Positions 23,544 to 49,223 are shown, counted from the stretch's first letter. The stretch: 64,000 bases of DNA from Clostridia bacterium (GCA_045531335.1 JAZSDU010000049.1:18485-82484), one strand, 5' to 3'. Translations and numbers: made by a program. Notes: generated from the letters alone by a model not told the origin.

Positions 23544-23687
23544 TGTAGGGGCAGCTATTAGCTGTCCGTCTTTTAATATATATTATTTTAGAATGGCTTC
23601 GCAGGTTGCGGACGACTACTACTCCCAGAGCATGTATTATCTGTAGCTCATTTCATTTCGCACAGCTAATCGATAGTAGCCCCTACA
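23544..23687. repeat. 144-bp composite element bounded by inverted TGTAGGGGC ends (REP-doublet / MITE-like)
   Basis: Left end TGTAGGGGCAGCTATTAGCTGT, right end ACAGCTAATCGATAGTAGCCCCTACA. Confidence 0.6.
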
Positions 23688-23810
23688 TTTTTAATTATTT
23701 ACTAATAATATGTTATTACTATAAACAACAATTTTCTAAAATCTTGTTTTTATAAATAAAATATGATAAAATAATTCAAATCTGAGTTATTATAGAAAAG
23801 AGGAGATAAT

Positions 23811-24257
23811 ATGAAAGTTATATTATTGCAAGACATAAAAAATGTAGGAAAGAAAGATGAAATTATAAATGCCAATGATGGATATGCTAGAAATTTTTTG
23901 TTTCCTAAGAATTTAGCTTTAGAAGCAACTAAAGATAATTTACTTAAATTACAAGCAAAAAAAGACTCTCAAAAACATAAAAAAGATTTAGAAATAGAAG
24001 AATTCAAAAAGCAAGCAGATAAAATAAAAGATATAGTTTTAGAATTGAAAGTAAAAGCAGGATCAAATGGAAAAATATTTGGTGGAGTGACTTCTAAAGA
24101 GATATCAGAAGAATTAAAAAAACAATATAAAATGGAGATAGACAAGAAAAAAATAATACTAAAAGAAACTATAAAAAATATAGGAAGATTTTCAGTAGAT
24201 ATAAAATTTGGAGATGGAGTAAATACTAAATTAACAATAAACGTTGTATCAGAATAA
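23811..24257 (+). CDS. rplI: 50S ribosomal protein L9
   Basis: [29 protein letters not shown] signature. Lies directly upstream of dnaB as in most Firmicutes. Confidence 0.9.
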
Positions 24258-24261
24258 TACG

Positions 24262-24316
24262 TGTAGGGGCGTTGTCAGTTAGGAATACCGAAAAGGATGA
24301 CCTAACTGCGCCCAAT
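24262..24316. repeat. GTAG-type REP-like hairpin
   Basis: TGTAGGGGCG...cagttagg-loop-cctaactg-CGCCC. Confidence 0.5.
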
Positions 24317-24357
24317 AACAAATTACAAACCATAAAATCATATGAAGGAGGAAATCC

Positions 24358-25689
24358 ATGGACCTAGGAAAAGTACCACCACATGATATAGATGCAGAAC
24401 AAGCAGTAATTGGAAGTATGCTTACAGATAAAGATGCTGTAGTAGAAGCAATTGAAGTTTTAAAACCAGATGATTTTTACAGACAAGACAATAAAACAAT
24501 ATATGAAGCAATTTTAAATCTATATAACAGAGCAGAACCTATAGATATAATAACAGTTAAATCAGAATTAACATCATTAGGAAAACTTGAAGCTGTTGGA
24601 GGATTAGAGTACATAGCAGTATTACCAGATAAAGTTCCTACTACAGCAAATGTAGACAAGTATATAAGGATAGTTGAAGAAAAATCAATTCTAAGAAATT
24701 TAATAAAAGCTGCAAATGATCTTATAAATTTAGGGTATGCTGAAACTGAGGAAGTAGACAGTATTATAGATGAAGCAGAAAGAAGAGTTTTTGAAATATC
24801 ACAAGGAAAAAATCAAAAAGGGTATACTCCAATAAAAGACATACTTGTAGAAAGTTTTGCTGAAATTGAAAAATTATATAATCAAAAACAGCCAATAACA
24901 GGAATACCAACAGGATTTGCGGATTTAGATTATAAAACAGCTGGACTTCATAATTCTGACTTAGTATTAGTTGCAGCAAGACCTGCTATGGGTAAATCAG
25001 CATTTGCATTGAATATTGCAACAAATGCAGCTGTTCAGGCAAAAGTTCCCGTAGTAATATTCAATTTAGAAATGTCAAAAAGTCAGCTTGTAAACAGAAT
25101 TCTATGCAGTGAAGCAATGGTTGATAGTAATAAAATAAGAACTGGAAAGATGGAAGAAGACGACTGGGTAAAACTTGCAACAGCATTAGGTCCACTTTCA
25201 GAAGCTCCAATATATATAGATGACACACCAGGTATTACAGTTACAGAAATAAGGGCAAAATGTAGAAAACTAAAAATGGAAAAAAATATAGGACTTGTAG
25301 TAATAGACTACTTGCAATTAATACAAGGCACTGGCAAAAGGAATTCTAGTCGTGAACAAGAAATTTCAGAAATAAGTAGATCACTTAAAATTTTAGCAAA
25401 AGAGCTAGATGTTCCAGTAATTGCACTATCGCAATTATCGAGAGCGGCAGAACAAAGAGCAGATCATAGACCAATGCTTTCAGACCTTCGTGAATCAGGA
25501 GCAATAGAACAAGATGCTGATATAGTAATGTTCTTATATAGAGATGATTATTACAATCCAGATTCAGAAAAGAAAAATATAGCAGAAGTAATTATGGCAA
25601 AACATAGAGCAGGTTCAACAGGAACAGTAGAACTATTGTGGCTTGGAAGTTATACTAAATTTGTAAATATAGAAAAATATAGGGAGTAA
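24358..25689 (+). CDS. dnaB: replicative DNA helicase
   Basis: PPHDIDAEQAVIGSML N-terminus, Walker A ARPAMGKSAF, RSLKILAKELDVPVIALSQLSR. Confidence 0.95.
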   Translation: MDLGKVPPHDIDAEQAVIGSMLTDKDAVVEAIEVLKPDDFYRQDNKTIYEAILNLYNRAEPIDIITVKSELTSLGKLEAVGGLEYIAVLPDKVPTTANVDKYIRIVEEKSILRNLIKAANDLINLGYAETEEVDSIIDEAERRVFEISQGKNQKGYTPIKDILVESFAEIEKLYNQKQPITGIPTGFADLDYKTAGLHNSDLVLVAARPAMGKSAFALNIATNAAVQAKVPVVIFNLEMSKSQLVNRILCSEAMVDSNKIRTGKMEEDDWVKLATALGPLSEAPIYIDDTPGITVTEIRAKCRKLKMEKNIGLVVIDYLQLIQGTGKRNSSREQEISEISRSLKILAKELDVPVIALSQLSRAAEQRADHRPMLSDLRESGAIEQDADIVMFLYRDDYYNPDSEKKNIAEVIMAKHRAGSTGTVELLWLGSYTKFVNIEKYRE

Positions 25690-25753
25690 GACGATTCTAG
25701 GGACTGTCCCCTTTAGTCCATGAATGGACCAAAGGGGACTGTCCTGAATCGTC
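25690..25753. repeat. family-B palindromic repeat (ACGATTCTAGGGACTGTCC...), doubles as the dnaB terminator
   Basis: Near-perfect 64-bp palindrome. 5' arm shared with copies at 37396 and 49121. Confidence 0.6.
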
Positions 25754-25778
25754 ATCTTTAATAAATAGGTGAATTTTA

Positions 25779-47235: not shown

Positions 47236-47676
47236 ATGTTAAAAGAAAAATTAATGGAAGATTTAAAAGAAGCAATGAAAGAAAAGCAAGTATTAAGAAA
47301 GAATGTTATTCAAATGATAAGAGCAGCAATATTACAGGTAGAGAAAGATAAACAAATTGAGTTAGACGAAAATCAAGTATTAGAAATAATAGCGAAAGAA
47401 TCTAAAAAAAGAAAAGACTCATTATCAGATTATGAAAAGAGTGGAAGACAAGATTTAATTGACCAAGTAAATGAAGAAATAGAAATAATTTCTCAATATT
47501 TACCAAAACAATTAAGCAAAGAAGAGATTATAGAAATAGTAAAACAAGTAATATCAGAAACTGAAGCAACAAGCATTAAAGATATGGGTAAAGTTATGAA
47601 AGCTGCAAAAGAAAAAATTGGAGCAGCAGCAGATGGAAAAACAATTAACGAGGCTGTTAGAGAATTATTAAATTAG
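47236..47676 (+). CDS. GatB/YqeY domain protein
   Basis: MLKEKLMEDLKEAMKEK...YLPKQLS...GKVMKAAKEK typical of the YqeY family. The track ORF from 47080 is an artefactual extension through the REPs. Confidence 0.75.
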   Translation: MLKEKLMEDLKEAMKEKQVLRKNVIQMIRAAILQVEKDKQIELDENQVLEIIAKESKKRKDSLSDYEKSGRQDLIDQVNEEIEIISQYLPKQLSKEEIIEIVKQVISETEATSIKDMGKVMKAAKEKIGAAADGKTINEAVRELLN

Positions 47677-47683
47677 GAAAATA

Positions 47684-47739
47684 TAGGGACTGACCCTGAA
47701 AAGTTGCAATTTATTAAAACTTTTTGGGTCTGTCCTGGA
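47684..47739. repeat. family-B-related hairpin (TAGGGACTGACCC ... GGGTCTGTCCTGGA)
   Basis: Inverted GC-rich arms flanking an AT loop, immediately after the stop of the GatB/YqeY-like gene. Confidence 0.4.
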
Positions 47740-47837
47740 TTTTCCGTTTTTTAGTATAAAAATATAACAATTAGAAAAAATAATATTATATGAATAAAGG
47801 TTGCAAAAATGCTAACCAGAAAAAGGAGAATACAAGC

Positions 47838-49118
47838 ATGTCTTATAATACAGAACAAATAAAGCAAGGTATAAAATTACATTGTATAGATACAAATAAG
47901 TTTAAAACGAACTTAATGTCAGTAATTATTACACTGCCACTAAGTAGGAAGAAAGTAACTTTTGATACTGTAATTCCAGCAGTTTTAAAAAGAGGAACAG
48001 CAAATTTAAAATCACAAGAAGAGATTGCGAAAAAATTGGAAAATATGTATGGAGCAAGTTTTGATTGTGGTATAGAAAAAATAGGAGATAATCATGTTAT
48101 AAAATTTTATCTAGAATCCCTAAATGATAATTTTATTCCAGAAAATAACGATATATCAACATTAAAAGACAGCTTAGATTTATTGTTAGATATAATATTT
48201 AACCCATATCTAGAAAACAATAAATTTAAAGATGAATATGTCGAAGCAGAGAAAAATAATATAAAACTATTAATAGAATCTAAAATTGATAATAAAGATC
48301 AATATGCATTAAATAGATGTATAGAAGAAATGTATAAAAATAAATCATATGGACTATATAAATATGGATATACTGAAGATCTAGATAAAATAAATTCTGA
48401 CAACTTATATAACTATTATTTAGAGATAATAAACACAAGTAAAATTGATATATTTGTGTCAGGAGAATTAGAAAAAGAAAAAATAGCAGAAGTTGTAAAA
48501 AACAATGAAAACATAAAGAATTTAGAAGAAAGAAATCCAAAATATATTGTAAATAATGAAGAAACTGAAGATAAAGAAAGTGTGCAAGAAAAAGAAATAG
48601 AAGAAAAAATGGATATAGGTCAAGGAAAATTGGTTATAGGGTTAGATGTAGAATTAAAGGATTATAATTCAAAATTTCCTGTATCTATGTACAATGTGAT
48701 ATTAGGGGAAAGTGCAACTTCTAAATTGTTTCAAAATGTTAGGGAGAAAGCAAGCTTAGCATATACAGCTAGATCAAATTATGTAAGACAAAAAAATAAT
48801 ATTTATATAAGATGCGGAATAGAAATAGAAAACTATGAAAAAGCATTAAGCATAATAAAAGAGCAATTAGAAGATATGAAAAAAGGAAAATTTACAGAAG
48901 AAGATTTAGCAAATGCAAAAAAATACATGATTTCAGGATTGCAATCAGTACAAGATGAACAAGATTCTGAAATAACATACTATATAGGGCAAGAACTATC
49001 TGGAAAACTTACAACATTTGAAGAATATATGGAACAAGTAAATAAAGTAAGTATAGAAGAAGTGAAAAAAGTTGCAAATAGCATAAATATAAATACAATA
49101 TATTTCTTGAGAAATTAG
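47838..49118 (+). CDS. M16-family (insulinase-like) peptidase subunit without the HxxEH motif
   Basis: AAAAGGAG RBS. M16 fold-like sequence, no zinc motif. Paired with the next gene. Confidence 0.65.
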   Translation: MSYNTEQIKQGIKLHCIDTNKFKTNLMSVIITLPLSRKKVTFDTVIPAVLKRGTANLKSQEEIAKKLENMYGASFDCGIEKIGDNHVIKFYLESLNDNFIPENNDISTLKDSLDLLLDIIFNPYLENNKFKDEYVEAEKNNIKLLIESKIDNKDQYALNRCIEEMYKNKSYGLYKYGYTEDLDKINSDNLYNYYLEIINTSKIDIFVSGELEKEKIAEVVKNNENIKNLEERNPKYIVNNEETEDKESVQEKEIEEKMDIGQGKLVIGLDVELKDYNSKFPVSMYNVILGESATSKLFQNVREKASLAYTARSNYVRQKNNIYIRCGIEIENYEKALSIIKEQLEDMKKGKFTEEDLANAKKYMISGLQSVQDEQDSEITYYIGQELSGKLTTFEEYMEQVNKVSIEEVKKVANSININTIYFLRN

Positions 49119-49120
49119 AA

Positions 49121-49146
49121 AACGATTCTAGGGACTGTCTTGAATT
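49121..49146. repeat. family-B repeat half (AACGATTCTAGGGACTGTCTTGAATT)
   Basis: Same 5' arm as the copies at 25690 and 37396. Confidence 0.5.
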
Positions 49147-49159
49147 GAATTTAAATTCC

Positions 49160-49223
49160 GTAGGGGCGGGTCTTGTGCCCGCCCAATAAATAAATGCGGG
49201 CAGGCACAAGACCTGCCCCTACA
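49160..49223. repeat. 64-bp REP doublet (GTAG-hairpin ... hairpin-CTAC)
   Basis: gggcggg-tcttgtg-cccgccc and gggcagg-cacaaga-cctgccc, ends GTAG/CTAC. Confidence 0.65.

Follow-up and report, generated by a model that had tools for sequence, protein, structure and literature searches.

Genomic context and anatomy of the repeats

The stretch of DNA analysed here, hereafter the window, comprises 64,000 nucleotides of a Clostridia bacterium (GCA_045531335.1, JAZSDU010000049.1:18485-82484), has a GC content of about 30% and can be divided into three blocks. The first (1-23,400) is phage-like, with a phage capsid gene and an endolysin-like gene, the third (51,900-64,000) is a conjugation block with a VirB4/TraG-like ATPase, and the central or core block carries rplI, dnaB, tilS, ftsH, purN, purF, nrdD, rpoB, rpoC, prs, yfmF/yfmH and lgt. 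In megablast searches the phage-like block matched no phage and the conjugation block no plasmid. Scattered over this core block are short GC-rich palindromic repeats starting with GTAG, which are the subject of this study. A preliminary description of this DNA had likened them to repetitive extragenic palindromic (REP) elements and REPINs (REP doublets forming hairpins), which are mobilized by REP-associated tyrosine transposases (RAYT, also named TnpAREP). REPs are very small DNA hairpins of parasitic or domesticated character.

Read from its flanks, the unit is 24 nt long and consists of GTAG, GGGCGxxx, a 3-nt loop, x'x'x'CGCCC and a closing G, and in all window units GTAG abuts the foot of the stem with 0 nt in between. 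Folded as single-stranded DNA (ssDNA), each unit leaves GTAG unpaired ahead of an 8-bp stem and a 3-nt loop, with z scores of -3.5 to -8. When at most one mismatch is allowed, the window contains 16 copies of the motif GTAGGGGCG, compared with an expectation of 0.97 (the maximum of 100 shuffles being 4), and all 16 fall within 23,545-49,222. A strict GTAG-plus-hairpin finder added the unit at 26511-26537, which brings the window to 16-17 units, spread over 26 kb and extragenic with one exception. The preliminary description had counted at least a dozen such units in intergenic DNA; its coordinates for solo units, doublets and composite all hold to within 1 nt, the offset coming from a preceding T that was counted there, and the anatomy it gave, (T)GTAG followed by a GC-rich hairpin with head-to-head doublets, is seen in both flanks and folds.

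Inverted dimers account for four doublets and one composite, always with the GTAGs on the outer side. Three of the doublets (41836-41883, 45491-45538 and 47164-47211) share an identical 48-bp layout, GTAG[hairpin]GC[hairpin]CTAC. The individual elements are listed below; the model named there is a covariance model that was trained solely on units from other genomes and run on the whole window with its filters off.

Repeat elements of the window (strand in brackets)
23545-23686: composite of two inverted GTAG units flanking about 90 bp, with arms at 23545-23568 (+) and 23659-23686 (-)
24263-24313 (+): solo unit with extended stem, GTAG GGGCG...CAGTTAGG...CCTAACTG CGCCC, with an exact GTAGGGGCG
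26511-26537 (+): in-frame unit within tilS (open reading frame, ORF, 25779-26780); fold z = -4.4, model E=1.2
33981-34004 (+): solo unit upstream of nrdD; model E=0.004
37446-37469 (+): solo unit upstream of rpoB, 40 nt past the stop codon of ORF 36887-37405; 30.6 bits, E=3e-4
37677-37720 (+): degenerate GTAG unit in the rpoB leader
41785-41811 (+): solo unit in the rpoB-rpoC spacer, 8-bp stem and 6-nt loop; model E=0.0012, fold z = -4.5
41836-41883: 48-bp doublet in the rpoB-rpoC spacer, GTAG(GGGCGAAC-TCT-GTTCGCC)TGC(GGGCGATT-AAA-AATCGCCC)CTAC; 34.7 and 38.2 bits
45491-45538: 48-bp doublet with the unit pairing as at 41836 and 3/48 differences, directly behind the rpoC intrinsic terminator
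47119-47142 (+): solo unit, GTAG GGGAGTAT-TGC-ATACTCCC G, just past a terminator-like hairpin at 47076-47109
47164-47211: 48-bp doublet with AAC and ACC stems, upstream of a yqeY-like gene; 32.4 and 40 bits, one long hairpin
49160-49222: doublet of a second subfamily, GGGCGGG-TCTTGTG-CCCGCCC, between yfmF and yfmH

The covariance model gave 23 matches at E<=10 in the window, all within 23,545-49,222, and no match in the phage-like block or in the conjugation block. The earlier statement that copies are absent from the phage and type IV secretion blocks was thus borne out in the window. On a rough ORF map the core block holds 4,367 of the 10,022 intergenic bases, and the probability that eight independent intergenic sites would all fall in it by chance is about 0.001.

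Within the core block, units sit just behind stop codons or behind separate terminators made of a hairpin and a T-run. The solo unit at 24263 begins 6 nt past the stop codon of rplI; it folds at -12.2 kcal/mol (z = -4.7) and matches the 24-nt model weakly (E=9.7). The composite occupies the divergent spacer between the last gene of the phage block and rplI, its + arm is matched by the model at E=0.022, and its ssDNA fold pairs both arms (z = -2.75). Between rpoB, which ends at 41665, and rpoC, which starts at 41913, three units are found, one solo and one doublet, rather than the two copies first reported. In all six solo units GTAG is on the + strand and reads in the direction of the genes, and the relatives described below are biased likewise. 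This fits either replication-linked targeting of ssDNA or selection at the RNA level, two causes that are inseparable here because the direction of the genes is also that of positive GC skew.

The doublets had been thought to form larger hairpins. This holds for 47164 and 49160, each of which folds as one long hairpin, whereas 41836 and 45491 fold as twin hairpins. The doublet at 49160 is REPIN-like, with near-identical inverted units 13 nt apart and a long hairpin of -27.3 kcal/mol (z = -8.4). The same pairing of an AAC unit on one side with an ATT unit on the other, in the same left/right order, occurs at 41836, at 45491 and at a different site in a related genome (L142:13781; loci from outside the window are designated by L numbers), which suggests that a doublet is copied as a unit.

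The only unit inside a gene lies in tilS, an essential gene that encodes tRNA-lysidine synthetase. There the repeat encodes VGDAAHSDP, and the alignment with Geobacillus kaustophilus TilS (3A2K) has 7 gap positions at this stretch; judged from the alignment, this copy fits an in-frame insertion in a linker. In-frame intragenic REP copies have been reported before (Di Nocera et al. 2013, PMC3733652).

Two of the solo units have more in common than the repeat. A tail of some 30 nt, TGCTCCAACG..TTACTA..AGATTAT, which lies outside the REP consensus, is present in both 33981-34040 and 37446-37505. No further copy of this tail, CCGTGCTCCAACG, was present among 266 loci, and hence no wider composite family was found.

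The family in other genomes

For the doublet, 185,579 species genomes were scanned with the pattern GTAGGGGCG-N9-CGCC-N-GC-N-GGCG, in which N9 was unconstrained, and at least 120 genome stretches carried it. Among the matches listed, most hosts were Oscillospiraceae, Faecousia, Ruminococcus, Acutalibacteraceae and other metagenome-assembled genomes (MAGs) of gut Clostridia, and the GC content of the host loci ranged from 38 to 66%. The pattern also occurred in Gemmiger formicilis and in a complete Ruminococcus genome; G. formicilis ATCC 27749 and Ruminococcus sp. JL13D9 are carriers in culture. In a few GC-rich genomes the matches look like chance.

Among the matches listed, all three free inner stem pairs were Watson-Crick in 202 of 217 units, a count made without filtering, and at least 25 stem types were represented. 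For the alignment, four obvious chance matches from GC-rich non-Clostridia genomes were left out; in the resulting 100 distinct units, 99.3% of cells were paired, each of the three variable stem pairs showed all four Watson-Crick types, and the covariation score was 0.50 compared with 0.11 after shuffling, a value that 0/500 shuffles reached. GTAG was invariant in these 100 units, although it was fixed there by the search pattern. About 135 doublets were counted among the matches listed, and their two hairpins nearly always differ in the inner stems; in such doublets the twin-hairpin fold is perfect and the single long hairpin is mismatched.

The same pattern gave 12 stretches in IMG/VR, which makes the doublet rare but not absent in that collection; as the collections are not normalised, this is a weak indication. 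It had been proposed that the repeats mark native as opposed to recently acquired DNA. This stands within the window, and the repeats could serve to tell resident from newly acquired DNA, but as a general rule it is supported in part only, since these 12 IMG/VR contigs carry the doublet. In one of them (L133, IMGVR_UViG_3300032167_007702, putatively viral) three doublets are packed into 300 nt, about 110 nt apart, in a cluster resembling the bacterial interspersed mosaic elements (BIMEs).

Five loci labelled Pasteurellaceae bacterium LFhippo2 (L031, L058, L059, L061 and L079; 38-40% GC) display the same 48-bp doublet layout with stems TAC/GTA and TGT/ACA. They represent either the sharing of one REP family across phyla or a mislabelled assembly. 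Haemophilus was given as the genus for RAYT group 4 by Bertels et al. 2017 (PMC5581495), and the Pasteurellaceae matches fit this.

Association with RAYT genes

Escherichia coli RayT, taken from NC_000913, was used as a phmmer query against all ORFs of the REP loci and matched ORFs in L057 and L106 (E = 6e-12 and 1e-9). A profile made from these two proteins retrieved 7,695 homologues, some of which had been named “REP element-mobilizing transposase RayT” by JGI. In L106, L138, L140, L141 and L146, two in-frame GTAGGGGCG units lie inside the RAYT gene itself; in the four measured (L138, L140, L141 and L146) the pair is exactly 146 nt apart and flanks the HUH motif. The unit on the + strand encodes VGANCVRP upstream of HUH, and the one on the - strand encodes GRPQVAPT between HUH and the catalytic Tyr. 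VGANCVRP is kept in 100 and GRPQVAPT in 84 of the 120 best among the 7,695 homologues. The AAC and ACC stems of the window doublet at 47164 are both stem types of the units inside RAYT genes.

Units are found around these genes as well. The RAYT genes of L106, L140, L141, L189 and L242 are flanked by REPs of their own type: upstream of that of L141 there is a unit at 70 bp and downstream another at about 500 bp, and that of L140 is followed by a doublet. The RAYT gene of L057 has no internal unit and is flanked by another GTAG family, GTAGTGGCCGATG... When metagenome contigs were scanned for nothing but the HUH motif, written as an AT-codon pattern, many RAYT homologues were recovered, of which the low-GC ones are flanked by their own GTAG units and contain them in frame. 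Examples are L242, flanked by GTAGGGGCAGACCTTGTGTCTGCCCG, which is close to the window subfamily at 49160; L189, with a “double-foot” unit encoding VGAIHELP; and L238, with a unit GTAGGGGCGACCTTTGGTCGTCCG whose stem and loop are identical to those of the window unit 47188-47211.

At the protein level, the sole PDB match of the RAYT-like protein P0099 was E. coli TnpAREP (4ER8, E=8e-6), and their alignment conserves VIMPNHLH (the HUH motif), IWQKSFMEHIIR and YIYENP. The residues through which TnpAREP recognizes GTAG are W94, Q95, E100, H101 and R104 (Quentin et al. 2018, PMC6006769); in the alignment, IWQ...EH..R and the tyrosine of YIY coincide. The match of the RAYT-like proteins to Pfam Y1_Tnp (IS200-like) is weak or partial, as was reported for class 2 of these enzymes (Quentin et al. 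2018, PMC6006769). In each of four samples (L136-L139) the RAYT P0110 has the same housekeeping genes around it, as expected of a fixed single-copy gene.

These observations bear on the idea that the repeats are ends, or miniature inverted-repeat transposable elements (MITEs), of a conventional insertion sequence (IS) of the IS200/IS605 type. The weak Y1_Tnp match of the associated proteins would suit it, and the ends of IS200/IS605 elements are likewise subterminal hairpins read as ssDNA (Quentin 2018, PMC6006769). Nevertheless, TnpAREP is the only PDB match of P0099 and the residues for GTAG recognition are kept; neither tnpB nor the body of an IS separates the units; the constant surroundings of the RAYT gene in L136-L139 fit a fixed single-copy gene and not a hopping IS; and a 5' GTAG at the foot of the stem is a REP signature. 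We consider such an origin highly improbable.

In L146, a clearly AT-rich RAYT gene (L146:10001-10522) lies in a 20.5-kb locus of 50% GC, and the two units embedded in it are GC-rich and identical. This composition suggests that the gene was acquired horizontally from a low-GC donor.

Turnover among close relatives

Loci syntenic with the core block were available from close relatives with RpoB 88-93% identical and a GC content of about 30%; the few RpoB matches with a named source are “Clostridia bacterium” MAGs. The REP content of their corresponding intergenic slots differs from that of the window. L142 and L143 have identical RpoB, and a doublet follows rpoB in L142 only; L145 has no doublet in the rpoB-rpoC spacer and L144 has a different REP set. 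Behind rpoC, a doublet directly follows the terminator in both the window and L144, with right-hand stems that differ. REP turnover between close relatives is therefore fast. As to the degenerate unit at 37677, in the same region the relatives have GTAGGGACGTAAG...ACGTCC units upstream of rpoB, all of them after AAAGT and in the same AAAGT-GTAGGG context (L142:9608, L143:9649 and L145:9697), and the window copy is probably old and decaying.

In the relatives, other palindromic families often occupy these slots. One of them, about 100 bp long and with arms rich in GTG and in CAC, GAGAAGTGAGAAGTGGGATGTGGGAAGTGTG ... CACACCTCACACTTCACACCTCTCAC, is present at L142:21540-21680, L143:13745-13840 and L145:22490-22620, in slots where the window has GTAG REPs, and has no copy in the window. 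The rpoC-prs spacer of L142 (17650-17800) contains a tandem array of TTTTGCTCGGAGCAAATTTTCCGCGAGAAGAC-like units, of which L143 has a shorter version and the window none.

The position of the units invites the proposal that they are host-encoded, immobile regulatory hairpins, acting as terminators, attenuators or mRNA-stabilising 3' hairpins and held in place by selection. Most units do lie downstream of co-directional genes, the GTAG of solo units is always on the transcribed strand, the first stem pair is G-T in 10 of 100 units, which fits a fold at the RNA level, and the REP-like unit of the rpoB leader is at the same place in three relatives. However, the + strand has no T-run behind the units, and separate terminators, one after rpoC and one at 47076-47109, stand just upstream of them; genomes with identical RpoB differ in their unit content; units are found in frame inside tilS and RAYT genes; and one sequence family extends over hosts of 30-66% GC. 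Regulatory hairpins of this kind are an improbable explanation on the whole, and a secondary RNA role after insertion would be accommodated by the mobile-element explanation preferred below. The units are not intrinsic terminators, as a terminator scan of the + strand picked no REP and placed its hairpin-plus-T-run sites separately, just upstream. Rfam at gathering thresholds gave 0 matches in the window.

Proposed origin and mobilization

We propose that the repeats are very probably REP elements of the GTAG superfamily mobilized by a RAYT/TnpAREP, with the solo units and the BIME/REPIN-like doublets as non-autonomous forms. Support comes from the anatomy of the units, the compensatory stems, the wide distribution in Clostridia, the association with RAYT elsewhere and the rapid gain and loss. 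The preliminary description had assigned the repeats to a REP class spread by RAYT, which is upheld by the REP anatomy and by the association of the family with RAYT in other genomes. In such a mechanism, the element would be recognized as ssDNA by a RAYT/TnpAREP HUH-tyrosine nuclease through its hairpin and its unpaired 5' GTAG. The enzyme would then cut, rejoin and disseminate elements into intergenic slots, typically just behind terminators or stop codons, with an occasional in-frame insertion into tolerant protein loops. The mobilizing RAYT would presumably be encoded elsewhere in the window genome, usually as a single copy. E. coli REPs form RNA hairpins in 3' untranslated regions (UTRs) and intercistronic regions, and by analogy the transcribed copies of the window may act secondarily as GC-rich RNA hairpins in such places.

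Several points weigh against this proposal. The copy counts describe this 64-kb window rather than a whole genome; exact-protein look-ups led to a single 4.9-kb Logan contig, through L9, and to no record of Prs. Searches with E. coli RayT and with a profile of 120 homologues detected no ORF for a RAYT or any further Y1 transposase, either in the window or in L142-L145, the four loci of relatives syntenic with it, and the cognate enzyme of the window genome is thus unseen. The top RAYT matches came from a query that contains the REP-encoded peptides and is biased towards REP-bearing genes, a bias mitigated by the independent scan of metagenome contigs for the HUH motif. Finally, between the window and its relatives no clean pair of filled and empty sites with exact boundaries was obtained; since the orthologous slots hold other palindromic families, no target site emerged from the comparison.

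The missing enzyme could also mean that the repeats are relics, inherited from an ancestor whose RAYT has since been lost, and are now decaying and immobile in the window genome. No RAYT was detected in the 64-kb window plus 95 kb of relatives, and some units are imperfect (23545, 33981, the left arm of 45491 and 37677). On the other hand, RAYTs are normally single-copy and their absence from 64 kb says little, while the near-identical doublets at two sites (3 differences in 48 bp) and the differing content of genomes with identical RpoB point to recent activity. A family of relics is therefore unlikely, and REPs still mobilized by a RAYT encoded outside the window are preferred.

Perhaps the RAYT gene of these Clostridia carries a built-in REPIN, in that the inverted cognate units 146 nt apart, in frame and bracketing HUH, would make the gene itself a substrate or seed, which could regulate itself through these hairpins and would re-seed REPs after horizontal transfer. 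On this view the in-gene hairpins are maintained by compensatory codon changes, such as VGANCVRP to VGASCARP in L138. We put this forward tentatively, as a possibility that is doubtful at present. If true, it would explain how one REP sequence comes to be present in hosts of 30-66% GC and even in a Pasteurellaceae genome, as well as the AT-rich RAYT gene in the 50% GC genome of L146.

Comparison with known REP systems

The system of E. coli, with its REPs, BIMEs and TnpAREP (RayT, 4ER8), resembles that of the window in the unpaired 5' GTAG at the foot of a GC-rich hairpin, the inverted pairs, the mostly extragenic location downstream of genes, and a homologous HUH-Y1 enzyme with the same GTAG-recognition residues. 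It differs in the long bulged stem of its REPs, where the window has short perfect 8-bp stems with a 3-nt loop and doublet hairpins that abut with 2 nt between them in a Firmicute host of 30% GC. In addition, E. coli REPs are species-specific, whereas the window-type REP sequence is common to hundreds of species.

Another counterpart is TnpAREP subclass 2.4 (equivalent to RAYT group 4), whose hallmarks, according to Quentin et al. 2018 (PMC6006769), are REPs of the “double-foot” form and REPs inserted in frame into the segment from HuH to Y. An in-frame REP between HUH and Tyr, the “double-foot” GTAG...CTAC, three G-C pairs at the base of the stem and a scattered distribution over several phyla are common to both, and the RAYTs linked to window-type REPs would belong to this subclass as judged by such traits rather than by placement in a tree. 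The subclass was, however, described as abundant in Cyanobacteria and Bacteroidetes, and no large clade of gut Clostridia was described (PMC6006769).

The REPINs of Pseudomonas fluorescens are composed of two inverted REPs that replicate as one unit (Bertels & Rainey 2011, PMC3116915). The recurrence of the same pair at 41836, 45491 and L142:13781 and the folding of 49160 as one long hairpin are reminiscent of them; in contrast, window-type doublets mostly differ in their inner stems and have a spacer of 2 nt instead of tens of nucleotides.

Similarly, the GTAG repeats surveyed by Di Nocera et al. 2013 (PMC3733652) share the GTAG tag, stems of 6-9 bp, loops of 2-3 nt, subfamilies arising by complementary stem changes, a predominance of head-to-head dimers and in-frame intragenic copies. 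In that survey they were found only in Proteobacteria, Cyanobacteria, Chloroflexi and the PVC group, with Firmicutes and Clostridia unmentioned, and the window-type family differs in that it sits in Firmicutes/Clostridia.

The RayT name in annotation pipelines and the traits of the subclass are already known; what the window adds is a textbook family of GTAG REPs in an uncultured lineage of low-GC gut Clostridia. Work on REP/RAYT systems has, to our knowledge, dealt almost exclusively with Proteobacteria. Our literature searches, some of them poorly specific because “rayt” also retrieves author names, found no relevant paper on REP/RAYT in Clostridia or Firmicutes, on the motif or on its peptides. 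The same 48-bp doublet layout is found across very many gut Clostridia MAGs, a class in which such elements have hardly been described before. In practice, annotations that include the repeats acquire small ORFs that are spurious and unusual GC-rich peptides (VGANCVRP, GRPQVAPT), and in MAG assembly the repeats are likely breakpoints. Moreover, the compensatory stem variants amount to a large natural data set on how a RAYT recognizes its REP.

Other features of the window

Upstream of the REPs in the rpoB-rpoC spacer lies a core of about 64 nt (41694-41757), AATAAAATTAAAT..GGAATTGTTCGAGC.GTGTATATTT.ATTTTAG..ATATTGTA, which is near-invariant in the window and the four relatives while its surroundings turn over. 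This core is not a REP; it could be the leader of rpoC or have some other regulatory role.

In the conjugation block, ORF 60433-61347 contains at 60563-60590 the sequence GTAGTAGTACTAATATTAGTACTACTAC, an AT-rich palindrome that is perfect over its 28 nt and begins with GTAG, yet is outside the REP family. Just before the conjugation block (about 51.9 kb), lgt appears as two ORFs, 50558-50989 (N-terminal, 143 aa) and 51048-51341 (C-terminal, 97 aa); the gene may be disrupted, or it may have undergone a frameshift close to an integration boundary.

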